From contig CBDANF010000003.1 in assembly GCA_965197475.1 (NCBI GenBank), positions 4,000,001-4,064,000 on the forward strand: DNA of 64,000 nt, written 5' to 3'. Under the pieces are notes generated by a model that saw nothing but the letters and a program-made list of their open reading frames with translations, had not been told where the DNA came from and searched no databases. Shown here one piece after another: positions 40,484 through 58,199 of the stretch (positions are counted from its first letter, which is position 1; every line of letters starts with the position of its first letter). Both the position numbers and the translations under genes were made by a program. The stretch is from Candidatus Poribacteria bacterium. Lineage in GTDB: Bacteria > Poribacteria > WGA-4E > WGA-3G.

Positions 40484-43400
40484 ATGCTGACGTTTTTCCA
40501 ACATTTTCTTATCGGAAAAATGGAAGAAGAAACACATAATGACGAAGAGGTAGTTGATCAAGAACAACCGGAGTCTGAACATCAACATGAGACTCCTAAT
40601 CCTGATTCTCCAGAACCTGTTGAAGAAATGGCAGGGGAAGAAACCTCTGATGACGCACAGCCGGAATCTGATTCGGATGCTTCATCAGAAGAGGCAGAAA
40701 CACCTCACTCCGAAGAAACACCTGAACCTCAAGAAACATCTGAAGTTGAAGGGACACCAGAAGTTGAGATGATGCCTGAAACTGAAGATATGTCTGAGGC
40801 AGATCATACATCCGAGTCTGAAGATACACCAGCGGAAGATATGCAATCTGAAGTTGAAGTAATGTCTGAGACCGAACAAGCATCAGAGGAAGATAAAAAA
40901 CCTGAAACTGAAGAAGCACCAGGGGAAGAAGCGGCACCTGAAGTTGATGAAACACCCGCTCCAACCGAACCGCAAATCCCCTATTCTCTCGGAGAGAATG
41001 AGGAATTGTTTGATTTCGTTGCGATGTTTGAGGAAAGCCAGCACTCTGGTGCCGAACACATATCAGCAAGCATGGCAGATTCAGCAGGAGGTGTTACCAA
41101 ACCTGCACTCTTTGAACACCCATCATCGACCGGTTCTGCACGAATTGTCTATGAATTAGACCTGCCTTCAGTTGAGGATAACGAGAACCTCTGTCTATAT
41201 TTCAGTATCGGTCTAAGAGATGGTGTCGTGTTTGATGATCCGCAAAGACAACCCGGCGGTGTTAAATTTTCTATTGAAATTTCTAGTGAACAATGTTTTG
41301 AATCTGTTTCAACAGAATGCAATTGGACCCAAAACGGCATAGATTTGACTCGTTCCGCTGGTGAAAAAGTTGAACTTGTTTTTATCACGCAATGTAATGT
41401 TGAGGGTAATAGCAGCTTTGCATGGGCACTATGGGGACAACCAAAACTTCTCAAACTCACTCGGACAGAAGCTGCCTCAACGAAAAAGGGTGCTAAGGAT
41501 CCACAAGCACTGCCTTCAGAAATACAATGTGGACTTGCGATTGCGAAATTGCCTGAGGATCGCACAGCTCTATTTGAATTCAATCGTGACGGTTTTACAC
41601 CTGCACATGAAATTGCTGCTGAAATTTATAACCAATTAGATATTGAACCAATTGATTTAGTGCTTTACGCTGCACAACCGAAATTAGAAATCGTGAGTGT
41701 GGGACCAACAGCAGCGGTCGTTGGCACAGGAGAAGCGTTTGAAGTCCAATGCACTATCAAAAACGTTGGTGCGGGACCTCTCGGAAAGGATAGTAAAACG
41801 CGACTTAGCATCAGCGATCTTAAGTTGCGACGCGGTCGATCCGCACATAATGTGAAGACAATTGCCCCCGGTGACACATCAACTTTTGTATGGTATGCAC
41901 GTGGAGTTCCACATCAAACTGACCTCAATTTTTCTGTTTCGCTTAAGTCTCACACTCCCAAAGTAGGTGAACGGATGAAGGGAGTTGTTCACATCTGCCC
42001 GGCATTGCCGAAGCTCGAAACGCAGGTCGTTCCGGAACTCCATACCTACATGCACGGTGAACATGTGGTACTTGGAAATAAAAATCTCCGTATCGTTTTT
42101 GTTCATAGCAGTGAACAATCCAAGTCAAACAATCGAAAATCTAATAAGGGTATATCCTCACAAATAAAAACAGAGGTTGGTTTCGAATATTACGCGATTT
42201 TCGTGGCGAAAGGCAGTAGCTATCAGCAGGTAGCGACCTCCAAAATGATTGCTGAGGCAACCTATCTTTCTGATGATGTCATCCACAACCTAAATTTTGT
42301 TCCAAACGATGTCCAATTAGCAGGTAATAGCCTTGGTGAATCCATTGTCCACCTAACAAGTGAACACAAAGATTCGGATGAGGTTACCTGGACGCTTCAG
42401 TTACAGTTGATCCTCACGGAAGATGCAAAACGCATCAAAACGACATATCGATTAACGACTGATAGGGAACGTGAACTTCTCGCTTTCCGAGGTACAGAAA
42501 TTTACGCTGGACATAAGAGCAGCCGCGAAAAGAAAACTGCAGCTCTATTTCCCGGTCTCGAATTCCTTGAAGGTGGTGAACCCTCTTCAAATACCCGTGA
42601 CGCGGCACCACCGCTTAACAATCGATTGGTCCCGCATCCCTATAAGATCACTGTTCCTGTGATGGTAGTTGAGATTCAGAAATCGGTTGTCGGGATCGCT
42701 TGGAATCCATTGCAAAGTTGGGATGGTGAAGCACAAAATGTTTCTGCTGTATTTGCTTCACCCAATTGGCATCATCAAGAGAGAAATCATCTAATGGGTC
42801 TCTTTCTTCCGACTGTGCTGGAATGGGTGCAGGAGAATACACTTGTTGCTGAAACTGCTTATCAGTTAACGCCGGAACGTCCAGTCACAATGGACTGTGA
42901 GATTATTGCTGATGGAAACGCCTCTATCTTAGATGGAATTGCACATTGGACAGACGCGTACGGCACTCCTGAACGACTTGAACCTCCTCGCAATGATGAA
43001 GAGGAGATTATGCTATCGCGGCACGGATTCATGCACACGGTTTGGGATGAAGAGACAAGACAATCCAGACACTGCGTTGATTGGGCTTCCCATAACGAAC
43101 CCGGATTTGCTACCTTACTTTGGTACGATTATTTAGTGACGAAATCTGAAGATGTTAAGGGGCGGGTTAAGGAAATAGCAGAAAAAACAATTGCTGACGT
43201 TGGTGCTAGCGGTTTGGCTGCTCGTGGATCGTGCCATATTCTAAGCGGAGAGTTTCCGTTCTATTTCGGACACTTAGATGCTGCGTTGGGATACTATGAA
43301 GCTGAGGTGCAGCCCATAATTGAGTCTCAAGCCGAAGATGGTAGTTGGGGTTTTAATCCGACATCTGAGAAAACACAAAACCTTGGGAAAGCGGGTGATG

Positions 43401-44371
43401 TCGTTCTTGGCACGTGTGCAGCAAAGGCACTCAAACTCCTAAAACATGCCCGCATCACGGGTAACAGTGCTTCGCTGGAAGCAGGCAAGAAAGCACTCTC
43501 TTTCATGGATCGTTTTTCCGTGCCGCGAGGCGCACAAGCGTGGGAATGTCCACTATATGAGCCGGATATCCTCGCTGCCGCACATGCAATCGGTGTCTAT
43601 GTGGAAGCACATGAAGTTATCGGTAATAAATCATATCTAAAACGTGCTGAATATTGGGCAGAGACGGGGCTGCCATTCTTATATCATTGGCATCTCGCTG
43701 ACCGACCCGGCATGCAGTTCGCTTCCATACCGGTTTTCGGAACAACCTTTTATACCCATTCTTGGCTTGGTGTGCCGGTACAGTGGAACGGTTTGGTATA
43801 TGCCTACTATTTGCAAAGACTGAATCAACATACACGGGACGAAAGATGGCGGAAAATTGCTGAAGGCATTACAATAAGTGCAATGTATCAGCAGTGGACG
43901 GATGGTGAACTGAAAGGCACGTATCCTGATGGATTTTACGGGTTCTGCACCGAAGGTAAAGGTCCACATCTCAATCCTGAAGATATTATGGCCAATGTCT
44001 ATATGCTCCGTGGACTTGACCCAGGCGTTAAGACTGCAATCTCAGGTTCAATCCATTTGAGTTCTGGTGCGAATCCCGAATCTGTTACCATATCCCGGAA
44101 TGGTGAATTAAAATGGACTCTTAACTATGCGGAAAATGAAATAAGCCACACCCTGATTACCGGTTATGAACAAGCCCCTTCCCTCATGCGTGCGCAAATC
44201 GCAGAGAGTGGTGGCGATAAAGATGATGCTCCTTTTGATATTCCTCAAGTTGATTCCTTAGAAGAGGTCACATCTGGATGGCGTTATCTTGAAGAAAAAG
44301 ACGCAATCCTGATTAAACAGATTCATACTACTACAGAGATGCAGTTTCAACTTCTTAAAAAGGTTGAATAA
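40484..44371 (+). CDS. Large hypothetical protein: acidic repeat N-terminus, beta-sandwich/CARDB-like modules, probable alpha/alpha toroid C-terminus
   Basis: 1295-aa ORF with GAGGAG RBS, E/P/T-rich hexapeptide repeats, CTIKNVG motif, QAEDGSW, YLKRAEYWA. Confidence 0.7.
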   Translation: MLTFFQHFLIGKMEEETHNDEEVVDQEQPESEHQHETPNPDSPEPVEEMAGEETSDDAQPESDSDASSEEAETPHSEETPEPQETSEVEGTPEVEMMPETEDMSEADHTSESEDTPAEDMQSEVEVMSETEQASEEDKKPETEEAPGEEAAPEVDETPAPTEPQIPYSLGENEELFDFVAMFEESQHSGAEHISASMADSAGGVTKPALFEHPSSTGSARIVYELDLPSVEDNENLCLYFSIGLRDGVVFDDPQRQPGGVKFSIEISSEQCFESVSTECNWTQNGIDLTRSAGEKVELVFITQCNVEGNSSFAWALWGQPKLLKLTRTEAASTKKGAKDPQALPSEIQCGLAIAKLPEDRTALFEFNRDGFTPAHEIAAEIYNQLDIEPIDLVLYAAQPKLEIVSVGPTAAVVGTGEAFEVQCTIKNVGAGPLGKDSKTRLSISDLKLRRGRSAHNVKTIAPGDTSTFVWYARGVPHQTDLNFSVSLKSHTPKVGERMKGVVHICPALPKLETQVVPELHTYMHGEHVVLGNKNLRIVFVHSSEQSKSNNRKSNKGISSQIKTEVGFEYYAIFVAKGSSYQQVATSKMIAEATYLSDDVIHNLNFVPNDVQLAGNSLGESIVHLTSEHKDSDEVTWTLQLQLILTEDAKRIKTTYRLTTDRERELLAFRGTEIYAGHKSSREKKTAALFPGLEFLEGGEPSSNTRDAAPPLNNRLVPHPYKITVPVMVVEIQKSVVGIAWNPLQSWDGEAQNVSAVFASPNWHHQERNHLMGLFLPTVLEWVQENTLVAETAYQLTPERPVTMDCEIIADGNASILDGIAHWTDAYGTPERLEPPRNDEEEIMLSRHGFMHTVWDEETRQSRHCVDWASHNEPGFATLLWYDYLVTKSEDVKGRVKEIAEKTIADVGASGLAARGSCHILSGEFPFYFGHLDAALGYYEAEVQPIIESQAEDGSWGFNPTSEKTQNLGKAGDVVLGTCAAKALKLLKHARITGNSASLEAGKKALSFMDRFSVPRGAQAWECPLYEPDILAAAHAIGVYVEAHEVIGNKSYLKRAEYWAETGLPFLYHWHLADRPGMQFASIPVFGTTFYTHSWLGVPVQWNGLVYAYYLQRLNQHTRDERWRKIAEGITISAMYQQWTDGELKGTYPDGFYGFCTEGKGPHLNPEDIMANVYMLRGLDPGVKTAISGSIHLSSGANPESVTISRNGELKWTLNYAENEISHTLITGYEQAPSLMRAQIAESGGDKDDAPFDIPQVDSLEEVTSGWRYLEEKDAILIKQIHTTTEMQFQLLKKVE

Positions 44372-46871: not shown

Positions 46872-47765
46872 TTAGGATCCGAGAGGTCCCTGTGTATACA
46901 CAGCGTTCTCACCAAATTGCTCAATGAGCCATCCCCGCAACGGCACATCCTCATCAGTTGGGACATAGCGACCATTATTTCTCACAGCAGCACCAAGCAA
47001 TTGACGGCGGATCGGATCGCAGCGTTCATAGAGGTGTTCAACTGTCATATCGTCTTTAGGACGAATCCATCGGTACCCATAACCGTAAAAGAGAGCCTTC
47101 CGAGTCATCTCTGAGGTATTTGGGCTACGCGAGTGCCAAAGTCGCCTATCAAACAGTACTGCTGTCCCATGTTCCACACAGACCGACATTGCATCTTCGG
47201 GAATACCTGCTGCAGTCTTTTCGCGTGGGTCACGACTGATTTCCAATTCAGGCAGCGGCACATCCGAGAAATGGCTACCGGGACGAATGTAAAAGTTACC
47301 GCGACCGGGTTCGGAGACATCTGTGAGGAAATATGCGACTTTCAAGGATAAGCGGGGACGCGGGTGTGTCTCCATCTCAATATTGACGCGACCGCTATCT
47401 TGATGCCATTCCAACCATCCGTCACCCTCTTGTGCATCTTGCGGGGCAGGTGGTTTAACGTGCATGTGTGCGTGGTAGAGATAGATATTCCATCCCAGAA
47501 TACCCCACACTTTAGGTAGCGTTGTCGGTAGGTCAACAAGGTCTAAAAAAGCATCGTCTACCTCTAAGAAATTTGACATACCCCAGTGATTGTCCGGTTT
47601 TGCCTTGCCAGTTGCAAGCACATCGCTATGAAGTTTATCTATAGCGTTCGTAAGATGTTCCACCATCTCCGATGATAGCGCGTTCGACACGTAAAGGTAT
47701 CCCTGTTCTTCGAAATGATTTCGCTCTTCTTCTGTTAATAAGTGAGAAAGGCATTCTTCGTTCAT
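46872..47765 (-). CDS. PhyH family dioxygenase
   Basis: FEEQGY, WHQD, IRPGSH and LWHSR motifs. Confidence 0.92.
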   Translation of the reverse strand: MNEECLSHLLTEEERNHFEEQGYLYVSNALSSEMVEHLTNAIDKLHSDVLATGKAKPDNHWGMSNFLEVDDAFLDLVDLPTTLPKVWGILGWNIYLYHAHMHVKPPAPQDAQEGDGWLEWHQDSGRVNIEMETHPRPRLSLKVAYFLTDVSEPGRGNFYIRPGSHFSDVPLPELEISRDPREKTAAGIPEDAMSVCVEHGTAVLFDRRLWHSRSPNTSEMTRKALFYGYGYRWIRPKDDMTVEHLYERCDPIRRQLLGAAVRNNGRYVPTDEDVPLRGWLIEQFGENAVYTQGPLGS

Positions 47766-47786
47766 AATTAGCACTCCTTGTCCTGA

Positions 47787-48590: not shown

Positions 48591-48755
48591 AACGTTTTAC
48601 TCCTTTAGATAGTCTGTATAGTGTTTAAATAGCACATGACACTGTGGGATATGGTATCACATCAATACGCTGCTAACCTGGATATAACTGTGCATGACAC
48701 CGTTTACATCCACAGGATGTGGGTTGAATCGCACGCAGAGCAATATACCAATAAT

Positions 48756-48894
48756 TATGAAGTTTATTGACAACATTCGTTAGATGCTCCACCATCTCTG
48801 ATGATAGCGCATTCGGCACGTAAAGGTATCCCTGTTCTTCAAAATGATTTCGCTCTTCTTCTGTTAATAAATGAGATAGACATTCTCCGTTCAT
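48756..48894 (-). pseudogene. 5' fragment of phyH (copy 2)
   Basis: MNGECLSHLLTEEERNHFEEQGYLYV...NKLH, then unrelated sequence. Confidence 0.85.
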
Positions 48895-49012
48895 AATTAG
48901 CACTCCACATCCCTAATTTTTACAACGACTTTTGTATCTGAATCTTCTTTAGCATAATTTATTTGTCCATACTTAACCATATATGAAATAATATAGAGTA
49001 TATCCATCTCTT

Positions 49013-49090
49013 ATTATATCTTATAACATACTGATATGTCAAAAAGAACACATAATTTTGCTTGACAAACTATAAAAATAAAGGTACAAT
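49013..49090. promoter_or_regulatory. Back-to-back sigma70 promoters
   Basis: Plus strand TTGACA-17-TACAAT (49062-49090) with ATG at 49097 (leaderless spacing). Minus strand TTGACA-18-TATAAT (49042-49013). Confidence 0.65.
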
Positions 49091-49096
49091 TGTGAT

Positions 49097-49516
49097 ATGG
49101 AAAATCAAAGTGAATACGTATCGTTAGTCCGAATCCGAAAAAATTGGTTTTATGTATTCATTGTTACGTTTTCAACCCTAATCATTATCAGCACTATTCT
49201 TGACTTAACACTTGATTGGTACATAAAAGATCTAGGCGATACAATACTAACACGAACCGCAGTCCTTATGACGTTAATAATAGGCTGGTTCTTTATAATA
49301 TCTAACATTTGGGAGGGCATCATGTACGGATGGGCAAAAATATACAAAGACAAAATTAGAGAAGAAGCTAAGGATGAAGTATTATCTGTATTAGAAAATG
49401 CTATAAGTGAAGGTATACCGGTTGAAACAATACTTACTGAACTTCGCAACAATAAAGCTGTTCCTCTCACAAGAGAAACTAAAAATCCAAACCAATTAGA
49501 CTCTGCAATAAAGTAA
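49097..49516 (+). CDS. Hypothetical two-TM membrane protein
   Basis: Two hydrophobic helices plus a charged C-terminal helix; AT-rich. Confidence 0.7.
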   Translation: MENQSEYVSLVRIRKNWFYVFIVTFSTLIIISTILDLTLDWYIKDLGDTILTRTAVLMTLIIGWFFIISNIWEGIMYGWAKIYKDKIREEAKDEVLSVLENAISEGIPVETILTELRNNKAVPLTRETKNPNQLDSAIK

Positions 49517-49684
49517 ATTGTAGTCAAGGCAGAAAGGGTACGGTTATCCTCATTGAAAGGTATCCCTGTTTTCAAAATGGTTTCGCTCTTCTTCTGTTAA
49601 TAAATGAGATAGACATTCTCCGTTCATAATTCGTGCTCCGTAGATTTTATATTATCCGATAAACATATTTGCAAACCTTAGGAC

Positions 49685-51154
49685 CTAACAACCTTGTAAC
49701 AATGCGCCTATCAGTCCAAGAATACTGAAGATGATAATTTGTAAAAGGCATCCGGTTCCACCTCTTGGCCATCCTTGTTTAATCATAATTAATTCTGCGG
49801 TATCATCAACTAATTGCTTGTTTATCTTATCCATCCCAGGTACACCATCCTTAAAGAGTAGAGTGAGTGAAAATGTTATCTGAATGGCGAATTCAAGTTT
49901 TTGATGTTCATTCCAAAGATGAAGGGCAATGTTTCTCACAACAATTGCTACTGTGCTATTTGCCTCAATAGGTTGTGTAGAGGTATCCCATGTTTTGACA
50001 GTTTGTATGAGTTGGTTGACCATAGGAGTTAAAGTATAATCAGGTTTTTTGGCATCTGCTGCTTCCTTAAGCTTTTCAACTTGTGTGCTAATTTCTTTAA
50101 ATTTTTTTACCCCAGTAACAAAAGGTATTTGTTCCTTTAATAGCTTTAAATCTCTATCAATCCCTTCAACAATTTCGGGCACTTCTGCAAATACTTCCTT
50201 GATCATATTTAGGATTTTCCAGGAGAATTCAAACTTACCATACTCATTAATTGGATCATCACTAAATATTTTGAATAGGTCAGCACCCAATATTCTGAGG
50301 TGACTTGCAATTTCAAAGCTGGCGGCATGTCGTTCACCTCTACTTCTTTTACTCAGTTGGATCGGTTGTGCAATGGTGTCCCAATCTTTAACGGCTTCAA
50401 TTAGTTGATTCACAATCGGTTGCAGCGTAGTATCTGGATTTTTTGCATCTGCCATTGATCGAAGTTTTTTGTCTTGTGCTTCAATTATTTTCTGTTTTTT
50501 TTCTAAATCATTCCCGACCTCAACTTCATACGACTGAATTAAGTCATCAATCAATATAGGATATCGGTTGTTATCATTGCCTATTACTGTCTCAAGTGTT
50601 AAAGTTAATATTCTTGCACGTTCAGCTACGGATAGATTGTTGATTACAAAGGAGAGTGTTTGACTATAATAACGTCTTTGGTTTTGAATTTCGGCAGTTA
50701 TCACTGATAAATCCGCAATTTGGGGAAAGCCCGATAAATTGCGTTCTTCGTTAAGTGTTCCCCTAACTTCTTCAGGATCAATTCTTTCATAAGCGTGAGA
50801 AATTGCAAGAATCCACTCTACAATGTTTGCAGAAGCAATATTTGTAAGACGTGACAATCCAGCCGTAAAGACATTAGCACTTGCAATCGATGACAGTCCT
50901 ATAATGTTGAGTAGGTATTGACTTGGAGAAACTAACTGCTTTAACACTGATTCTATATGTTCTGGATTAACTCCGGGCAGCCACGCTACTTCAGCTGAAA
51001 TACGGTTACGCGGGTTAATCAGCACTGCACGTGCAGCAGCACATTTATTTGGATCTGATAACAGACTCTGTTCCTCCGCGAGTTCCATTATTCTTTGGCG
51101 GTTATCTCGCGGCGTGGCACCTAAAATATGAAAAGGATTTTTTAATAGATCCAA
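49685..51154 (-). CDS. Hypothetical helical protein with J-domain-like (HPD-less) N-terminus, internal repeat and C-terminal TM
   Basis: NPFHILG...ARAVLINPRNR; duplicated segment ADAKNPDTTLQPIVNQLIEAVKDWD / ADAKKPDYTLTPMVNQLIQTVKTWD; tail GCLLQIIIFSILGLIGALL. Confidence 0.7.
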   Translation of the reverse strand: MDLLKNPFHILGATPRDNRQRIMELAEEQSLLSDPNKCAAARAVLINPRNRISAEVAWLPGVNPEHIESVLKQLVSPSQYLLNIIGLSSIASANVFTAGLSRLTNIASANIVEWILAISHAYERIDPEEVRGTLNEERNLSGFPQIADLSVITAEIQNQRRYYSQTLSFVINNLSVAERARILTLTLETVIGNDNNRYPILIDDLIQSYEVEVGNDLEKKQKIIEAQDKKLRSMADAKNPDTTLQPIVNQLIEAVKDWDTIAQPIQLSKRSRGERHAASFEIASHLRILGADLFKIFSDDPINEYGKFEFSWKILNMIKEVFAEVPEIVEGIDRDLKLLKEQIPFVTGVKKFKEISTQVEKLKEAADAKKPDYTLTPMVNQLIQTVKTWDTSTQPIEANSTVAIVVRNIALHLWNEHQKLEFAIQITFSLTLLFKDGVPGMDKINKQLVDDTAELIMIKQGWPRGGTGCLLQIIIFSILGLIGALLQGC

Positions 51155-51174
51155 ACCTGCTCCAGTAATCGAGG

Positions 51175-52416
51175 TTAGTTTTTCTGTTCACGTTGGTCGG
51201 CTATTTTATTTAGTGTTTCAAGGTCAGCGGTGATGCGTTCGGTAATTGTGGGTACCTCCGCGAACACTTCTCGTAACATACACAAGATTTGTTGAGAAAT
51301 ACCAAGTTTATCATGTTCATTATAAAGGTATATAGCCAATTGTCGGACCTTCATAGCGACACTGTGACTTGCATCATCATGAAAGCCCATTCTTTTTTTC
51401 TTGAGTAAGATTGGTTGTGCCATATTGTGCCAGTTTTTAACAGCTTGAATGAGTTTATCCACCAGTGGGGCTAAAGTTGTATCAGAAGCTATTATATCTG
51501 CAGCATATCGCAGTTTCTGATCTTGTGTATTAATATTCTTTTCTTCGTTTTCAAGAATTGGTGTAGCCTTCACTGCATAGGCATCAATGGTGTCGTCTAT
51601 CAAAAGTGGTTTACGATTCTTTTTATGAACAATTGTAGATTCATCAACTATCATCATAATAGCATTCAAACGTTCTTTAGCAGAATGTATATTACTCAAT
51701 ACCGATTTAATAACCTGTTGATAATAATATCTACGATTCTGGATTTCTACTGCTACAGATGAAACGTCAGTAATTTCTGGGAAACTTGCCTCTCTACGTT
51801 CTATGTTGAGTGTTGCACACACCGTTTCTGGATCAATATCCTCAAATGCTTGGGCAATTGCAAGTATCCATTTAGCGATATCGTCGGGCATGTAGTTTGG
51901 TAAACGGCACATCCTAGCAGCAAGTATGTTTGATCGTGCAATAGAGTTAAGTTTCTCTATGCAGAGGTACTGACGAATTTGCTTTAGAGTATCTATTTTA
52001 TTTGAATGTCTCTTAGGTTGAAATATGCTTTCAAGTAAAAAATGTTCCTCCGATAGTTTCAATAAATCTAACACTTCGTCAGCAACATTATATGTTTCAG
52101 CACAAGGCAAACGGGATAGTGCAGCGGCAAGCGAATCAACTGGAATTATAGATGTTAACTTATCACGGCAACGGTGGCTCCCTGCTGATGCCTCTAACAA
52201 CATTAGCATTTCATCTGCGCGATTTTGGTTGACACCTGGCAGCCATGCTACCTCAGCAGAGATGCGCTTGCGCGGGTTTGTTAGTATAGACCTTGCCTTC
52301 ATACAAGCGTCAACATCAGATAACAGACTACGTTCTTCAGCTGATTCTTCAATTCTACGTATATCATCTCGCGGTGTCAAGCCAAGAATATGAAAGGGGT
52401 TATCAAATAAATCCAT
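51175..52416 (-). CDS. Soluble paralogue of 49685-51154 (J-like N-terminus)
   Basis: NPFHILGLTPRD...ARSILTNPRKRISAEVAWLPG is near-identical to the neighbour; no TM tail. Confidence 0.7.
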   Translation of the reverse strand: MDLFDNPFHILGLTPRDDIRRIEESAEERSLLSDVDACMKARSILTNPRKRISAEVAWLPGVNQNRADEMLMLLEASAGSHRCRDKLTSIIPVDSLAAALSRLPCAETYNVADEVLDLLKLSEEHFLLESIFQPKRHSNKIDTLKQIRQYLCIEKLNSIARSNILAARMCRLPNYMPDDIAKWILAIAQAFEDIDPETVCATLNIERREASFPEITDVSSVAVEIQNRRYYYQQVIKSVLSNIHSAKERLNAIMMIVDESTIVHKKNRKPLLIDDTIDAYAVKATPILENEEKNINTQDQKLRYAADIIASDTTLAPLVDKLIQAVKNWHNMAQPILLKKKRMGFHDDASHSVAMKVRQLAIYLYNEHDKLGISQQILCMLREVFAEVPTITERITADLETLNKIADQREQKN

Positions 52417-52437
52417 TCTCAATAATTATTCTGTAAA

Positions 52438-55023
52438 TCATACCTTGAATATATTGACAACAATATCACGTTCAGTTGTTTTGTCATCCTCAAAGCGAGG
52501 TATTAACATCATCTGCCTTACAATCTCACGTAGTTCTTCAATAGTTCCATCGTCAATAATCGCAGTTTGATATTTCTCTGCTGGCGAGAGCTCTTCATAT
52601 CTACGAATGAGATCACTGCCTAAAAGTTGCTTTCCTTTCAATGCAAGTTCCTCAAAACGAGCACTGTCTGTAAAAAACTGAGGAGTACTGATCAGGCGTT
52701 TGAACCTTTCAATTATAAACCAGGGCTGCCTCCAGAGAATTTCAAAAATCCTGGCTCTAAGTTCATCCAAATGCTCATCAAAGTCATTATCGTTATTATC
52801 AATGGAACGCTGAGCAGTTGCTACAAGACTGTCAAACGCTCTTTCCTCCGAGGGACGTGAATGCTGTCGACAATACATATCAAAAAATGTGAGTTCACTA
52901 TTCAGTTCAACCTGACAGATTCCCTTCCGATTTTTTCTTTTCACTTCCTCAAGGAGTTCCTTAGCTTGTGTGATACACTGATCTGCTTCTTTTACCTTAT
53001 CAGGATCAGATTCATCGGAATCAAGTGAGAGAGGTGTTTCAAGTTTTTGTAGTGCCTGATCTAACTTTGGATCATCCACAACGTCTTTAATCTCGTTTAT
53101 ACTGTTGCGTACAACGATTCCCTTTTCAATTATCTCATTGGCGATTAAAGTATAATTGCGTTTTCCTTCATCAGGAGAATAGTGATCTGTTTTGCATAAT
53201 TCAAATATGCCACGGATATCTGGCACTTCTAACTTTAATTTGATTTCTGCCGAGTTCTTTATCTCAAAATTACATATTAAGTCCGCGCTTTCGGGAATAA
53301 CACCTTCATAAAAATCGGTGCCCTTTATTTTGAATTCACCGATATTTTCATTGGCATAAATATCTTCCTTAAATTCACCCTCCAGTAGGATAAAATTTAG
53401 GAATTCAGATGAACCAGCTTCAAGTGCTTTGCGAGCTTTTAGCCCAGGAACGCTGACCTTTTTAGGTAGCGTATCTCCCTTTTCTATCAACGGAACAAGA
53501 ATATCTTTACCAATAGATTTGTCATGAACTACTAAACTTATTGATGATGGAGATGGAATAGCTTCAACAATAGCAGTAGTTTTTGTGATGACAATTTCGT
53601 GCTGTTCTATAGGTTCTCCGACAGCGTCATATACAACTACTTTAAACGTATTCTCCCCTGGCTTTGTCAAGTTAACGTCTACGGTTGTCCCATGTTTTAG
53701 CGGAATCCTTCCAGATGTCGATGCAGTATCAAGACTATCAATTTGGAATTCAAAACCCAAGGGAACCTCTCCTCCTACTTGCACAGCAATCTTTGATGTA
53801 TCGCTTGGTGTTCGTGCTGTGTAATTAAAACTTAATGTTAATTCATCAGAAGATATTTGACCGCGGGTAGGTTTCATTTTATAATCTTCAGAACTCCAGT
53901 CAATAGATTCTGCAAAAAGACTCGCGCCTTCAGCTACAGCGGTCATGGGTTTGTATTTTGATATTTCAATTTCACCGTTAATTCCAAGTTCTGAAGATAC
54001 TTTGTCCCGCAAAGGTTTGTAATGTGTCGGGCCGCCAACCCAGACGATACGGTCAATATCGTGTGCGTTTACACCACATTCTTCCATTGTTTTACGAGCA
54101 CAATTTATTGTGTCGTTTATTTTCTCTACTATTAGCTTGTCAAAAGTATCACGTCGCAAAGGGAACTCCTGGAAGATTGTTTCACCTTTTAAATCTTTTA
54201 GACAATCAGGTAAAGTGCCCTGTGTAGGAGGAATGGTTATAGTAGATTCTTCACTGCGGGATAATTCTATCTTTGCCCGTTCTGCTGAACGATCGAATAT
54301 AGAAGTAAAATTTTCGAAATCTTTGTTTTTATCTAAATCATCTGGCAAATCGTATTTCTCATATAATTGAGGTAGAATAATATTATCTACAATTAGACGA
54401 TCAAAATCCTCTCCACCGCAAACTTCTATTCCACCGTGTGCAAGAAGGTTTACCTTTCCTCCAGTACTTTGTGCAATGGCCACGTCAAACGTCCCGCCAC
54501 CGAGATCGTAGATTAGAAAGGTGCCATCGGCGTTGTGTGTTCTCATAAAACTCATCACCGCTGCAACAGGCTCTTGCATCAGTTCAACTTTGCCAATTCC
54601 CGCCATTTCCGCAGCTTGTCTTGTCGCGTATCTTGCTTTCTGATTGAATGCCGCAGGTACAGTAATAACTGTGCCTGTTTCAGACGATTTTCTGATTTCC
54701 TCTAGCTCGGGGGAACCAAACAACTCTTTCAATATGTCCACAGAACATTCTTCAGGTGTCACGGTGAGATTCACTGCGGAGAGTTCAATTAAGTGGTCTT
54801 CTCCCATTCTACGTTTGAATGACTTTGCACAACTTTTAGGATATATTGGCCACAACGTATAAGCTGCGTGCCCAATTTGTTTTCTTCCTCGTGGGTCATA
54901 ATAAATGACTGATGGAGTTACATCGTTTCCTTCTCTGCTTTTAATGAGTACTGTTTCTGCGCCGTCGTATACGTAGATGACACTATTTGTTGTACCTAAG
55001 TCGATACCGATAAAATTATTCAT
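52438..55023 (-). CDS. Atypical Hsp70-family protein (861 aa)
   Basis: GIDLGTTNS, TVPAAF, EPVAA, DLGGGTFD, GGEDFD and VGGPT motifs. Extra beta-rich insert after the ATPase domain and a long helical tail. Confidence 0.93.
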   Translation of the reverse strand: MNNFIGIDLGTTNSVIYVYDGAETVLIKSREGNDVTPSVIYYDPRGRKQIGHAAYTLWPIYPKSCAKSFKRRMGEDHLIELSAVNLTVTPEECSVDILKELFGSPELEEIRKSSETGTVITVPAAFNQKARYATRQAAEMAGIGKVELMQEPVAAVMSFMRTHNADGTFLIYDLGGGTFDVAIAQSTGGKVNLLAHGGIEVCGGEDFDRLIVDNIILPQLYEKYDLPDDLDKNKDFENFTSIFDRSAERAKIELSRSEESTITIPPTQGTLPDCLKDLKGETIFQEFPLRRDTFDKLIVEKINDTINCARKTMEECGVNAHDIDRIVWVGGPTHYKPLRDKVSSELGINGEIEISKYKPMTAVAEGASLFAESIDWSSEDYKMKPTRGQISSDELTLSFNYTARTPSDTSKIAVQVGGEVPLGFEFQIDSLDTASTSGRIPLKHGTTVDVNLTKPGENTFKVVVYDAVGEPIEQHEIVITKTTAIVEAIPSPSSISLVVHDKSIGKDILVPLIEKGDTLPKKVSVPGLKARKALEAGSSEFLNFILLEGEFKEDIYANENIGEFKIKGTDFYEGVIPESADLICNFEIKNSAEIKLKLEVPDIRGIFELCKTDHYSPDEGKRNYTLIANEIIEKGIVVRNSINEIKDVVDDPKLDQALQKLETPLSLDSDESDPDKVKEADQCITQAKELLEEVKRKNRKGICQVELNSELTFFDMYCRQHSRPSEERAFDSLVATAQRSIDNNDNDFDEHLDELRARIFEILWRQPWFIIERFKRLISTPQFFTDSARFEELALKGKQLLGSDLIRRYEELSPAEKYQTAIIDDGTIEELREIVRQMMLIPRFEDDKTTERDIVVNIFKV

Positions 55024-55916
55024 GATTCTGTTTTCCTTAAATAAACTTTTCCTCTTTTGATTAAATTTGTTCCCTTCATTATTATTGGTTCAATCATCCA
55101 AGTGACTTCCAAAGAATCGTTAACACCAATGTTCTTCGGTGGATCTACGGGGTCCGCAGCCATTCCTGCATCATAAGCGTGTCCTTCAACATTGACGATC
55201 CGTAAACCTACATCATTAAGGGATTCTTCTGCTTTCTTTAAAAACCATTCTATTCGACTTGTATAACGTCTGGGTTGATCTATTTTAAGCTGTAAAATTG
55301 CATGTTCAAATGTTTTCGCAAGGTACCAAGCTTCAGTTGTTAACTTTATAATGGTCTCTTCATGCTCTTCCACATCATTTTCAGCGGTTACGTTAATTAC
55401 TGCTTCATTTTGTCCCTCCATATCCTTTTCAGGTACATCTTTCAACTTGGCTAACTGATCAAGTACAGGTGGGTAATATTGCATACCAATACACAAAGCC
55501 AATGCAATGGGCAATCTGTATAGATCTATTTTTGTTTTTGGGAACCATATCAATATCGCACAATAACTTGCTCCAAACGCGATAAACATTGCCCATGTAG
55601 TGGATATTAGCGCATATTCTTGGATATCAGTTGATGATACCGTTATTCGGGTTATAAAGTAAATGAGAGCCAAGACTAATATTGTGCCTATACAAATAGG
55701 GGTTATGAAAGAAATAGAATCTAATGATTGTGGTGAGATGAATATCAGTGCTGTAATGATAATTATCTGTGAAATAATTAGAGATAACAGGACACAAAAA
55801 TAGAGAAAATCTAATTTCTTGAAAAGTCCCTTTTTTTTCATAACGTTTACGCAAACTACCATCATAGATACTATGAAGACGTAAACAAATAACTCTATTA
55901 TCACCATTTTTAACAA
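55020..55916 (-). CDS. Membrane protein with C-terminal GrpE-like domain
   Basis: About 5 N-terminal hydrophobic segments. C-terminus GLRIVNVEGHAYDAGM...V..MIEPIIM.G..LIKRGKV resembles the GrpE head. ATGA overlap with Hsp70. Confidence 0.7.
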   Translation of the reverse strand: MLKMVIIELFVYVFIVSMMVVCVNVMKKKGLFKKLDFLYFCVLLSLIISQIIIITALIFISPQSLDSISFITPICIGTILVLALIYFITRITVSSTDIQEYALISTTWAMFIAFGASYCAILIWFPKTKIDLYRLPIALALCIGMQYYPPVLDQLAKLKDVPEKDMEGQNEAVINVTAENDVEEHEETIIKLTTEAWYLAKTFEHAILQLKIDQPRRYTSRIEWFLKKAEESLNDVGLRIVNVEGHAYDAGMAADPVDPPKNIGVNDSLEVTWMIEPIIMKGTNLIKRGKVYLRKTES

Positions 55917-55985
55917 CCTAAGATCGTTTTATCTATCTTTACATAAATATTCTCTTAATTAAATTTTTGCGTCTAAGTATTATGA

Positions 55986-56816
55986 CTACATATCGCCTTT
56001 CACAGAACGATTAGGATGGCTAAAACCGATACCACGTTTGGACGATTCTATAAACTGGAGTAGATATTCAACTTCTGGATCTGCTGGTAATTCCTCTTTC
56101 ACTTTGCTAACAGCATGTCTCAACGGTAAACCAGAACGGAACAAAATACGGAAAGCTTTTTTTAGGAGGGCAAATGTTTCGGGGGAAAGTTTCGATAACG
56201 GATTGATTTGTGATGTCCGAATACCGATGCGATTTAAGTCTCGGACACGGGCAGGTTGACCAGCCGAAAGCGCGAACGGTGGGATGTCTTGAACAATTTT
56301 TGAACAACCACCCGCCATCGCCATTTTACCGACACGAACAAATTGATGAAGTGCAGCGTAAGCACCGAGGCGAACATCATCTTCAATGGTAACATGACCA
56401 GCAAGTGTGGCAAAATTCGCCATAATCGTTCTGCTGCCGATAATAGAGTCATGAGCAATATTCACCCAATTCATTAAAAGATTATCATCGCCAATAACAG
56501 TTTCGCCATCTTCAAAAGTTGAACGAGAGATAGAGACGTACTCACGCAGGACATTTCGGTTGCCGATGCGGACATAACTCCGTCCACCACTATATTTGAG
56601 GTCCTTTGAGGGATTTCCGACGGTTGCACCGAAAAAGATTTGGCAATCTTCACCAATAGTCGTCCATTTTCCGATCTGAACATGCGGCCCGATCACAGTA
56701 TTAGCACCAATCTGAACATGGTCTTCAACAATGGTATAAGGATCAATGTGAACACCTTCTCCCAATTCGGACTTAGGTGAAATAATTGCGGTTGGATGAA
56801 TGTTTGTCGCTGTCAC
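55986..56816 (-). CDS. lpxA: UDP-N-acetylglucosamine O-acyltransferase
   Basis: IHPTAII, hexapeptide repeats, DLKY, IAHD, LAGHV, HQF, SKRGI. Confidence 0.95.
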   Translation of the reverse strand: MTATNIHPTAIISPKSELGEGVHIDPYTIVEDHVQIGANTVIGPHVQIGKWTTIGEDCQIFFGATVGNPSKDLKYSGGRSYVRIGNRNVLREYVSISRSTFEDGETVIGDDNLLMNWVNIAHDSIIGSRTIMANFATLAGHVTIEDDVRLGAYAALHQFVRVGKMAMAGGCSKIVQDIPPFALSAGQPARVRDLNRIGIRTSQINPLSKLSPETFALLKKAFRILFRSGLPLRHAVSKVKEELPADPEVEYLLQFIESSKRGIGFSHPNRSVKGDM

Positions 56817-56888: not shown

Positions 56889-58199
56889 TTACCCGTTTCC
56901 TGTAGGTGCAAGTGCAATAGACAATTCAGCTTCCGCCGCGAGAGCATCGCCTACATACACCTCCCCAGTGATTCGTGCCAAGGTGCTGCGCCGCTGAACG
57001 ATCTCAACTTCTAATCGAAGTTGATCCCCAGGTATAACCGTTTTCCGAAAAGTTGCTTTGCTGATAGATCGGAAATAACCGAGTTGCTCCTCTTCTCCGA
57101 TTTCCTGAAGCAACAACCATGCACCGAGCTGTGCAAGTGCCTCTACTTGCAAAACGCCCGGCATCACTGGTTGCGCTGGAAAATGTCCTTCAAATATAGG
57201 TTCATTGTACGTTAGATTTTTTATGCCGACAGCGCGTTTTCCGTTCTCAAATTCAATTACTCGATCGAGTAAACACATCGGGTGCCGATGTGGTAGAATT
57301 CGATAAATCTCCTTCGCTTCAACGGGTTGATTTTTCTCACCATCATCCGCCTGTACAAAATCAAGGAACCCTTTTTCTGCCAGAGTCTGAACAAATTCGG
57401 CATGGAATGTGTGCCCACTGCGCATAGCGATGACTCGCGCTTTCGGCAGGTATCCCGCAAGGTAAAGATCACCAATTAGGTCAAGCGTTTTATGACGAAC
57501 AAATTCGTCTTTGAACCTTAACTCCGAACTCGTCTGCCCATCTGGTTTTATAACGACGACGTTCTCATAACTTGCGCCTTTCCCAATTCCCAGCGATTGC
57601 AATGCTTCAATTTCAGCCTCAAAACAGAAACTGCGAGCGGGTGCAATTTCGCGAATATAGGTATCTTCAGTCATCTCCCATGTGACAAATTGTGGGATTG
57701 TATTCGGATGATCATAAGCAAAGGTAACCTCAAAAGTATCGGATGGGAGAAAGATAAGTTGCTTGTTACCATCACAAACAGCAAAGGGGTCGGATACTTC
57801 AATGAAACGACGGGGAGCATCTTGCGCTGCCAATCCAACTTCTTGGATTTTCGCGACATACGGTAGCGCGCTACCATCAAGCCCTGGAGGTTCCTGTGCA
57901 TCAAGTTCCACCCTTGCATTGTCAATCTTGAGACCACCTAAGGCAGACAAAAGATGTTCAATGCTACTTATTGTTGTGTCGCCATGTTGTAAACTAGTAC
58001 AACGCGGTAATACCTCTGCACAATTCTCCGGACAAACTTTCACCTCCGGTGTCCCCGGCTTATCAATCCGCTGAAAAACAATACCGGAATTCGCAGGAGC
58101 TGGCTTTATTGTCAGCGTAACCGGTTCTCCCAGCATCAACCCTTTTCCAGAAATTGTGACTTCAGACTGAAGTGTTTGTTGAGATTCAACATTTCCCAT
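56889..58199 (-). CDS. lpxC: Bifunctional LpxC/FabZ
   Basis: LpxC motifs IEHLLSAL, LDGSA, IAPARSF, RHKTLDLIGD, SGH; FabZ motifs LPHR, FEGHFP..PVMPGVLQVEALAQ. Confidence 0.95.
   Translation of the reverse strand: MGNVESQQTLQSEVTISGKGLMLGEPVTLTIKPAPANSGIVFQRIDKPGTPEVKVCPENCAEVLPRCTSLQHGDTTISSIEHLLSALGGLKIDNARVELDAQEPPGLDGSALPYVAKIQEVGLAAQDAPRRFIEVSDPFAVCDGNKQLIFLPSDTFEVTFAYDHPNTIPQFVTWEMTEDTYIREIAPARSFCFEAEIEALQSLGIGKGASYENVVVIKPDGQTSSELRFKDEFVRHKTLDLIGDLYLAGYLPKARVIAMRSGHTFHAEFVQTLAEKGFLDFVQADDGEKNQPVEAKEIYRILPHRHPMCLLDRVIEFENGKRAVGIKNLTYNEPIFEGHFPAQPVMPGVLQVEALAQLGAWLLLQEIGEEEQLGYFRSISKATFRKTVIPGDQLRLEVEIVQRRSTLARITGEVYVGDALAAEAELSIALAPTGNG

Follow-up and report, generated by a model that had tools for sequence, protein, structure and literature searches.

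The window analysed here is a 64,000-nucleotide stretch of a Candidatus Poribacteria genome (GenBank assembly GCA_965197475.1, contig CBDANF010000003.1, positions 4,000,001 to 4,064,000 of the forward strand), and our subject is a cassette of four genes within it that adjoins lpxA and is built around an atypical Hsp70. An initial annotation, made by a model from the letters and a list of open reading frames (ORFs), had described four tightly packed, co-oriented, AT-rich genes at this place, and the ORFs, their strand and their composition all agree with that description. In the ORF list of the window the four genes lie on the minus strand between 49685 and 55916, all four reading frames are intact, and their guanine-cytosine (GC) content is 0.34-0.42, as against 0.43-0.50 in the flanking genes. 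The genes are listed below together with lpxA, which was taken from the ORF list and whose orthologues were located in related genomes.

55986-56816: lpxA, directly upstream of the cassette
55020..55916, minus strand: gene 1, 298 amino acids (aa), a predicted polytopic membrane domain with a GrpE-like head
52438..55023, minus strand: gene 2, 861 aa, an atypical Hsp70
51175..52422, minus strand: gene 3, 415 aa, a predicted soluble adaptor, with a probable start at the ATG at 52416
49685..51154, minus strand: gene 4, 489 aa, a paralogue of gene 3 in which the C-terminal helical unit is duplicated

The coupling of genes 1 and 2 noted initially is seen directly in the sequence, where the ATG of gene 2 overlaps the stop codon of gene 1 as ATGA. 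With the ATG of MDLF taken as the start of gene 3, a choice that follows its homologues, the gap between genes 2 and 3 is 21 nucleotides; genes 3 and 4 are 20 nucleotides apart, and gene 4 starts with a TTG that has GGAG ahead of it. The limits of the operon could not be read from a promoter and terminator scan, which returned 37 promoter-like sites where 27 were expected and 3 terminator-like sites where 5 were expected.

The Hsp70 and its predicted partners

The domains and segments that we assign within the four proteins, predicted from alignments, models and hydropathy, are as follows.

53899..55023, minus strand: nucleotide-binding domain of gene 2 (aa 1-375), catalytic motifs intact
53554..53871, minus strand: inserted beta-rich domain of gene 2 (aa ~385-490), between the ATPase domain and a linker-like segment
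53248..53550, minus strand: divergent region of gene 2 resembling a substrate-binding beta-domain (aa ~492-592)
52441..53181, minus strand: helical C-terminal region of gene 2 (aa ~615-861), conserved across the family
55539..55916, minus strand: membrane region of gene 1 (aa 1-126), 4-5 predicted transmembrane (TM) helices
55023..55397, minus strand: predicted GrpE-fold domain of gene 1 (aa ~174-298), a helical hairpin and a small beta domain
52234..52422, minus strand: predicted J-fold domain of gene 3 (aa 1-63), lacking the histidine-proline-aspartate (HPD) motif; the helix II/III loop reads LLSD
49688..49765, minus strand: predicted membrane anchor of gene 4 (C-terminal aa 464-489), one hydrophobic segment by hydropathy

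The identity of gene 2 as an Hsp70 with intact ATPase motifs is well supported, and the conservation of these motifs predicts that it is ATPase-competent. Its residues 5-371 match the Pfam HSP70 model (PF00012) with an E value of 6.2e-53 (180 bits against a cut-off of 20.6), and its closest PDB matches by sequence search are DnaK ATPase domains (E 7.6e-48). The motifs GIDLGTTNS, FKRRMG, QEPVAA, YDLGGGTFD and VGGPT align with those of the same genome's own DnaK, and the phosphate-1, Lys70, connect, phosphate-2 and adenosine motifs are all present in this alignment. Across 56 members of the Hsp70 family, D8, G10, T11, D173, G175-T178, D180, G330, G331 and P332 are invariant and K70 is kept in at least 90%. 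In the alignment with DnaK, a Glu stands in gene 2 at the position of DnaK Arg167, the residue that contacts the Asp of the J-domain HPD motif. Gene 2 also matches 15 NCBIfam families, all far below their cut-offs (DnaK, HscA, MreB-type and other actin-like generics), and the name HscC is not among these 15.

Beyond the ATPase domain, gene 2 departs further from DnaK. The beta-rich insert of ~105 residues, which the initial annotation had passed over, has no equivalent in the alignment with the genome's own DnaK, is conserved within the Hsp70 family, and gives a weak match to the Pfam Cadherin-like beta-sandwich model (E 8.3e-5, under the cut-off). The region that follows may be a divergent substrate-binding domain: in hhalign, residues 492-592 align with the DnaK substrate-binding domains of 30 relatives over 87 collinear columns at 28% identity, a weak match (P 0.0018, probability 15%), and a PDB profile search did not recover it. 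The helical tail has no Pfam match, and a PDB profile search with the C-terminal half of the protein found only de novo helical proteins (E>0.04).

Structural modelling gives good support to the assignment of gene 1 as a GrpE-fold domain carried on a membrane anchor. Hydropathy marks overlapping segments at residues 1-28, 30-49, 34-65, 51-69, 64-96 and 107-126, and the AlphaFold2 model, computed as a single chain, has N-terminal helices at 2-29, 35-60, 71-92 and 96-124, followed by a C-terminal domain of ~120 residues whose predicted local distance difference test (pLDDT) scores are 85-97. With this model, Foldseek puts GrpE structures in each of the ten top places among its PDB matches (probability 0.80-1.00, E 4e-3 to 0.1), and VIA-align gives Z scores of 7.8-8.9 against six GrpE chains, among them 4ani_A (Z 8.2, root-mean-square deviation (rmsd) 4.3 Å, 111 residues) and 8gb3_E (rmsd 3.8 Å over 103 residues). 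The helix at 174-209 could be a remnant of the long dimerising helix of GrpE. At the sequence level, hhalign of the gene 1 family with the GrpE proteins of 24 relatives gave P 1.9e-4 and a probability of 47% over 52 columns, and the aligned columns fall on the corresponding helix and on the G-x-x-(F/Y)-D-P turn; weak matches to Pfam GrpE (PF01025) appear in 3 of 40 gene 1 homologues (best E 0.0012). A PDB sequence search with gene 1 returned only chance-level rows, and NCBIfam and PADLOC yielded no specific family. VIA matches of the membrane region (G-protein-coupled-receptor-like, ZnT8 and DgkA folds; Z about 6-7) were discarded, since scores in this range are common for helices. Gene 1 has 283 representatives at E<=0.001, the majority of which match residues ~180-298 only, and most members of the GrpE-like domain family are free-standing proteins of ~120 aa; among 40 homologues the head is also joined to Mrr_N, HSDR_N, EVE and other membrane domains, one each.

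Genes 3 and 4 are paralogues (38% identity, BLASTP E 5e-71), and there is good support for reading both as an HPD-less J-fold domain followed by variable helical repeats. The C-terminal helical unit, of ~110 residues, is repeated in gene 4, where it produces a second BLASTP match (E 5e-17), and the AlphaFold2 model of gene 3 is all-helical (pLDDT 82). The N-terminus is the best-conserved part of the adaptor family, with the consensus MDLLxNPFHILGATxRDNRHRIMELAEERSLLSDxDECMxARxxLTNPRxRISAEVAWLPGV in an alignment of 35 sequences, none of which has an HPD motif. Genes 3 and 4 alike carry the LLSD loop, in which L33 is invariant and L34 and D36 are kept in at least 90% of the 35. When the whole gene 3 model was searched with VIA against 48,161 PDB representatives, two of the best 50 rows covered residues 1-63: the J domain of DNAJB8 (2dmx; Z 7.8, rmsd 2.8 Å, 61 residues) and a subunit of a ciliate respiratory supercomplex (Z 7.7). 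Gene 4 is in addition well supported as a tail-anchored protein from its predicted C-terminal hydrophobic segment, and the tail motif GCLLQI-IF-ILGLIGALLQGC is common to many homologues.

Searches by family name were uninformative for the adaptors: the only name among the 120 listed of 380 gene 3 homologues is 'hypothetical protein', a PDB sequence search with gene 3 returned chance-level rows only, and NCBIfam and PADLOC gave no specific family for either gene. Two sets of structural matches were set aside, namely the generic helical-repeat proteins that Foldseek found in the PDB for the whole of gene 3, which say nothing about the small N-terminal domain, and the VIA matches of its C-terminal bundle (designed bundles and syntaxin- or MUN-like folds; Z 9-10.6), which are common for helices.

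Gene fusions connect the adaptors with the Hsp70. PF00012 is found in 50 of 59 longer relatives of gene 3, and in 4 of 6 fusions examined a J-like motif lies ~25 residues beyond the end of the fused ATPase domain, the search pattern being unmatched in the other 2. In these 4 the ATPase domain is 53-56% identical to that of gene 2, and some of the fused domains have degenerate motifs. A fusion of this kind is classic evidence that both parts work together. This second Hsp70 ATPase domain is frequent in the poribacterial copies and was missed in the initial annotation. The adaptors are the more variable component (mean column identity 34%, against 63% for the Hsp70), and one adaptor paralogue terminates in NPHP3-type TPR repeats.

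Taken together, the cassette very probably encodes a self-contained Hsp70 with a membrane-bound GrpE-fold partner and J-fold adaptors. The assignments made initially are thus upheld: an 861-aa Hsp70 with intact ATPase motifs, a TM region with a GrpE-like head in gene 1, paralogous J-like N-termini without HPD in genes 3 and 4, and a C-terminal TM anchor in gene 4; the structural likeness of the partners to GrpE and J folds, which had been expected, was recovered for genes 1 and 3.

Distribution and insertion of the cassette

We surveyed one genome per species for relatives of gene 3, of which 124 were found and 79 loci kept. Besides Candidatus Poribacteria metagenome-assembled genomes, the loci come from Desulfobulbaceae, Geomonas, Syntrophus, Comamonas testosteroni, Oligella urethralis, Advenella, Anaeromyxobacter, Chlorobium, Alistipes senegalensis, Thermoflexus and others, and the order of the cassette spans Poribacteria, Proteobacteria, Bacteroidota and Chlorobi. 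In all 60 loci with at least 4.4 kilobases (kb) upstream of the gene 3 relative, an Hsp70 gene and a GrpE-like gene lie upstream on the same strand, which bears out the conserved gene order foreseen initially and gives good support to the conclusion that the GrpE-like, Hsp70 and J-like proteins always travel together. The Hsp70s of the family are 44-55% identical to gene 2 across phyla, and the gene 3 relatives of the 18 poribacterial loci are 36-77% identical to gene 3.

The survey also separates the poribacterial loci from the others, two groups that were set by record title, with one untitled, poribacterial-looking locus counted among the others. An AAA ATPase between the Hsp70 and the adaptor is found in 39 of the 42 other loci and in none of the 18 poribacterial ones. 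This intervening protein, of ~488 aa, is a classic AAA ATPase (PF00004, E 1e-26 to 1e-30); that the usual AAA+ partner of the family is missing from the window had been overlooked in the initial annotation. At least two adaptor paralogues are present in 15 of the 18 poribacterial but only 3 of the 42 other loci, and of the GrpE-like ORFs in the full set of 79 loci, 13 of 19 in Poribacteria and 3 of 43 elsewhere are of the long gene 1 type with a membrane part. In the AAA-bearing relatives, the GrpE-like protein is short and soluble (~125 aa) and the adaptor is usually single. These findings make it fairly probable that the cassette represents a 'private Hsp70' module, widespread and mobile, in the form without AAA that is typical of Poribacteria.

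A larger variant was seen in Aerolutibacter (L132), Comamonas (L135), Zestomonas (L138), a contig from IMG/VR (L177) and an Aeromonas plasmid (L178). It adds a protein of ~510 aa with a peptidoglycan-binding domain, which was identified by Pfam in L132 and L138 and by annotation on the plasmid; L135 has a 305-aa protein without a Pfam match in that place. At least five extra small downstream genes belong to this variant, one of which is annotated on the plasmid as an RDD-family membrane protein. A gene of ~250 aa after the adaptor had been considered as the peptidoglycan-binding protein and was dropped: it has no Pfam match, and PG_binding_1 sits in the other, ~510-aa proteins.

Full-length relatives are carried on four plasmids, from Shewanella, Aeromonas, Polaromonas and Vibrio. 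On the Aeromonas IncP plasmid, the cassette comes after the Tn7-like transposition genes TnsD and TnsE, and its genes are annotated as 'Hsp70 family protein', 'ATP-binding protein', 'peptidoglycan-binding domain-containing protein' and hypotheticals. Four IMG/VR contigs also carry the cassette, three of them completely and one ending before the GrpE-like gene; a portal-like gene is a neighbour on one contig and two integrases on another.

Within the poribacterial family the cassette is accessory and is inserted at a variable site. Among the 61 genomes of the family, 14 were found to contain a relative of gene 3, and for the genus the figure is 9 of 27. The distance that separates lpxA from a 300-aa gene (46872-47774 in the window, and its orthologues) was compared in five single-contig genomes of the genus: it measures 0.3 kb in G054, 2.4 kb in G046, 3.1 kb in G003, 8.2 kb in the window and 9.1 kb in G064; the gap of G064 carries the cassette, and the site is empty in G054. 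The insertion and the repeats beside it are located as follows.

48756..55986 (7231 bp): stretch skipped by one contig of run X1, comprising the cassette and a small, separate membrane-protein gene
48822..48906 (~85 bp): direct repeat copy 1, similar to the 5' end of the 300-aa gene (46872-47774)
49556..49639 (~85 bp): direct repeat copy 2, immediately downstream of gene 4

The contig of run X1 joins position 48755 to 55987 at a word depth of 115, as against 10-34 over the cassette, and 94% of the sampled words of the cassette are present in the same run. Runs X5-X18 and X20-X22 contain small word shares, which give no information on habitat. The patchy presence, the variable insertion site and the contig that skips the insert support horizontal acquisition, as had been suggested initially. 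The direct repeats (families D1 and D3; 94% and 86% identity, 94% in the main part) flank the small gene beside the cassette, and their likeness to the N-terminus of the 300-aa gene is a reading by eye; a repeat of this kind suggests that inserts have entered more than once at a single spot downstream of lpxA. No integrase, transposase or other mobility gene was seen in the ORF list of the window insert.

The small gene within the skipped 7.2 kb (49097-49516, plus strand) encodes a 139-aa protein with 2-3 predicted membrane helices and is convergent to gene 4; two sigma-70-like sites (12/12 and 11/12) stand back to back just upstream of it. A close copy of 143 aa lies at the same site in G046, where no relative of gene 3 was found, which argues that the 139-aa protein is a separate module. 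The lpxA-proximal sites of G003 (L140, C1:24800-28100) and G046 (L141, C1:4586900-4589400) share a protein of 269-306 aa. By eye, a 438-aa protein that accompanies the 306-aa form in G003 looks transposase-like and an 82-aa protein at the G046 site resembles a helix-turn-helix regulator.

Relation to known Hsp70 systems

DnaK requires an HPD-bearing J protein and GrpE. The cassette resembles the DnaK-DnaJ-GrpE set in encoding an Hsp70 ATPase, a GrpE-fold partner and a J-fold partner together, and differs from it in that the J fold lacks HPD, the GrpE-like protein keeps only the head, which is joined to a membrane domain, and the Hsp70 has a beta-insert and a long, unrelated helical tail. The accessible text of a 2026 review (PMC13580251) places HPD in 99% of J domains, describes it as needed for the stimulation of Hsp70, and terms bacterial DnaK derivatives largely unexplored. 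The cassette is also accessory and mobile, whereas the genome keeps a separate canonical dnaK, grpE and dnaJ.

Two systems with membrane-held partners invite comparison. HscC of Escherichia coli is a specialised Hsp70 paralogue with the adjacent membrane-anchored J proteins DjlB and DjlC; these retain HPD, and HscC is not known to have a private GrpE-like factor. Set against these general descriptions, the cassette likewise combines a specialised Hsp70 with a private, membrane-anchored J-like protein, and differs in its HPD-less J folds and its own GrpE-like factor. The mitochondrial import motor consists of mtHsp70, Pam18, the J-like Pam16, Tim44 and the GrpE homologue Mge1, and Pam16, which lacks HPD, docks and regulates rather than stimulates and works beside a true HPD J protein. 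Shared folds are the whole of the likeness shown here (a membrane-held Hsp70, a GrpE-type factor and an HPD-less J-like protein), and the cassette, unlike the motor, contains no HPD partner.

Hsp70 proteins have also been placed in predicted conflict systems. In the accessible sections of Kaur et al. 2020 (PMC7159879), where chaperone-regulated effectors are a theme, the conflict systems centred on GAP1-N2 GTPases include Hsp70, GrpE and DnaJ-FNIII proteins. As described there, they share with the cassette the pairing of Hsp70 and GrpE, to which some of them add a second Hsp70 ATPase domain devoid of the peptide-binding part, and they differ in being built around GTPases with true DnaJ domains, while the cassette has neither GTPase nor tubulin. 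CnuD of the CoCoNuT systems, in the corresponding sections of Bell et al. 2024 (PMC11090510), is Hsp70-like, tied to McrBC-type GTPases and HEPN nucleases, and has degenerate Walker A-like motifs. It too is an Hsp70-like module inside a predicted defence system; as far as that text describes CnuD, the cassette differs in its intact ATPase motifs and in having no recognised McrBC-type gene. We rejected an identity with CoCoNuT or another GTPase-linked Hsp70 system, as none of the four genes carries a GTPase domain. The nearest likeness is with the AAA+-bearing relatives, which have the GrpE-like protein, the ~830-aa Hsp70 and the J-like adaptor in the same order; the cassette of the window lacks their AAA, has its GrpE-like protein on a membrane anchor and carries two adaptors.

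The initial annotation knew of no characterised system with this architecture, and none was matched here: a PADLOC-DB v2.0.0 search with five proteins gave only chance-level matches (SspC, E 0.0029, for gene 3; Cas6, E 0.016, for the 139-aa ORF), and full-text literature searches, whose reach excluded subscription journals and supplements, found no description of it.

Outside the window, the same genome carries other non-canonical Hsp70 genes. A second cluster (L179, G000:C2:896000-912000) encodes a 968-aa caspase-domain protein (Peptidase_C14 and CARDB), a 693-aa Hsp70-vWA fusion, a 304-aa GrpE that Pfam detects, a 550-aa Hsp70 with a Pfam match over the ATPase domain only, and two ankyrin-repeat proteins; it resembles the chaperone-based conflict systems in the accessible sections of Kaur et al. 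2020 (PMC7159879) more than the cassette does. Elsewhere (L180, G000:C2:1396000-1408000) a GrpE of 235 aa, a truncated Hsp70-like ATPase of 492 aa and an FGE-sulfatase-domain protein of 406 aa stand in a row. In the window itself, the 436-aa ORF adjoining lpxA (56889-58199, minus strand) resembles a fused LpxC-FabZ by eye, and a 1295-aa protein (40484-44371, plus strand) has a very acidic, repeat-like N-terminus of ~190 residues rich in Glu, Pro and Thr.

Possible roles of the cassette

From the folds and anchors of the four proteins, a working mechanism can be proposed. Gene 1 would tether the Hsp70 at the inner membrane and reset it by nucleotide exchange; the adaptors, soluble in the case of gene 3 and membrane-bound in that of gene 4, would dock through their J-fold domain onto the ATPase domain and the linker region, and their variable helical parts might pick out a client or respond to a trigger. 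The lack of HPD, together with the Glu in place of DnaK Arg167, makes it probable that adaptor and ATPase are coupled in a non-canonical way, through docking or gating and not classical stimulation.

An anti-phage or other conflict system, or else an envelope sensor, had been suggested initially. We infer that the cassette serves some purpose other than the folding of proteins in general. To an accessory role in conflict, probably a membrane-located defence against phages or other mobile elements, we give a little less than an even chance of being correct, and we favour it because of the patchy presence and mobility of the cassette, the defence neighbours of its relatives, the fusions to DNA-reader domains and the TPR-tailed adaptor. 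A more specific form of this proposal, which we consider doubtful, is a chaperone-driven immune system in which the HPD-less adaptors recognise a phage or plasmid product and dock on the dedicated Hsp70, ending in membrane damage or in the unfolding of an invader protein. In such a system the GrpE-like partner, with its variable membrane or DNA-reader domains (TM, Mrr_N, HSDR_N, EVE), would reset the Hsp70 cycle, and the poribacterial form would act at the membrane without an AAA+ unfoldase.

Several results weigh against this interpretation, at the level of the folds as well as of the role. The Pfam GrpE model is blind to gene 1 (no match at E<=1, and none in six frames at the cassette), Pfam DnaJ (PF00226) has no match at the cassette in proteins or six frames, a protein-atlas search with gene 3 residues 1-82 returned no usable match, and the J-domain signal in hhalign is weak (probability 7.8%, P 0.0045, 17 columns). 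Prediction of a complex between gene 2 residues 1-620 and gene 3 residues 1-82 scored 0.38; the highest score among its three controls was 0.00. Of 80 solved complexes 58 passed the score mark, as did 2 of 110 mismatched pairs, counts that are approximate because custom alignments were used. Among those passing, scores of 0.60 or less came from only 7 of the 80 solved complexes and from both mismatched pairs. The runs share at least 95% of contacts, with a partner pLDDT of at least 69, and we regard the result as a weak pass from which no interface is reported.

As to the role, the immediate neighbours of the cassette in the window are housekeeping genes of lipid A, cell-wall and redox metabolism and not defence genes, and no toxin, nuclease or effector domain was found in the four proteins by Pfam, PADLOC or NCBIfam. 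The defence genes near the relatives were counted with PADLOC models on 128 ORFs lying at most three genes from the cassette in 22 non-poribacterial loci, figures that stand without a matched control. The count gave 5 ORFs for Type I restriction, 5 for HamA (Hachiman), 3 for Type IV restriction, 2 each for PDC-S02 and mad3, and 1 each for PDC-S68, PDC-M27C, HEC-05 and a capH-like regulator, and these numbers overstate independence because five loci share one restriction-Hachiman arrangement. The poribacterial form may also work differently from most relatives, since it lacks their AAA+ partner. There is no more than a hint of expression: in two RNA libraries from a single sponge study, contigs with a depth of 2-3 agree, without any difference, with parts of genes 1-4. 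These contigs may stem from DNA carry-over, and the stretches that they leave uncovered carry no information.

Other functions have to be weighed against a conflict role. The cassette might be a dedicated quality-control chaperone of membrane proteins or the envelope, which extracts, holds or inserts particular inner-membrane or secreted proteins under stress and has no part in conflict. The anchors on genes 1 and 4, the adjoining lpxA, lpxC/fabZ and MltG-like genes, and the peptidoglycan-binding and RDD-family membrane proteins in some relatives' operons would fit this explanation, as would the combination of Hsp70 and AAA+ in the family, which recalls DnaK and ClpB. The DnaK-ClpB pair is a disaggregase. 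However, presence in 14 of 61 genomes, with absence from close strains, would be odd for a core envelope function, the neighbourhood of lpxA is merely the insertion site and is empty in G054, and relatives occur on plasmids, on prophage-like contigs and in defence neighbourhoods; we therefore consider an envelope chaperone unlikely. It is quite unlikely, too, that genes 3 and 4 are clients or effectors, with the Hsp70 and GrpE-like pair restraining a latent membrane-active or oligomerising protein until a trigger arrives. The absence of HPD, which makes classical stimulation of the ATPase doubtful, the repetition of the C-terminal units in variable number and the tail anchor of gene 4 would all suit such effectors, and a chaperone 'thresholding' of effectors has been proposed for other conflict systems in the accessible sections of Kaur et al. 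2020 (PMC7159879); but an N-terminal J fold, fused in relatives right behind an Hsp70 ATPase domain, suits a docking co-factor better, and no pore-forming or toxin family was recognised by Pfam or PADLOC.

The mobility of the family raises the further possibility that the module serves the elements that carry it, in assembly, transfer or superinfection exclusion, and that the poribacterial copy is stranded cargo. The Tn7-like genes that adjoin the cassette on the IncP plasmid and the portal-like gene and integrases beside it in the IMG/VR contigs are consistent with such a service, yet the carriers are elements of unrelated kinds, and the cassette is also chromosomal, with an insert in the window free of mobility genes and frames intact in 18 poribacterial loci, so that this explanation appears very unlikely. 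Most improbable of all is that the poribacterial cassette is a decaying remnant that ceased to work after losing its AAA+ partner. The distribution of the AAA+ gene (0 of 18 poribacterial and 39 of 42 other loci) and the degenerate motifs of some fused second ATPase domains could be taken in this sense, but four intact frames, the recurrence of the AAA-less layout in 18 poribacterial loci, the conserved catalytic residues and the RNA-library contigs that match the cassette genes speak against decay.

Returning to the reading that we prefer, of a private Hsp70 module with a possible conflict function, the family moves across phyla by way of plasmids, prophage-like contigs and variable chromosomal sites, and its poribacterial variant illustrates how such a module is remodelled in sponge symbionts. 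The cultured carriers, which include Comamonas, Geomonas, Aeromonas, Shewanella and Oligella, open the family to direct experiment. If the partners bind as their folds suggest, the cassette would be a natural test of an Hsp70 cycle driven or gated without HPD, and if it is an immune system, an Hsp70 could be coupled to a J fold that lacks this motif. Should the conflict reading be right, Hsp70 machines would join the list of bacterial immune mechanisms.

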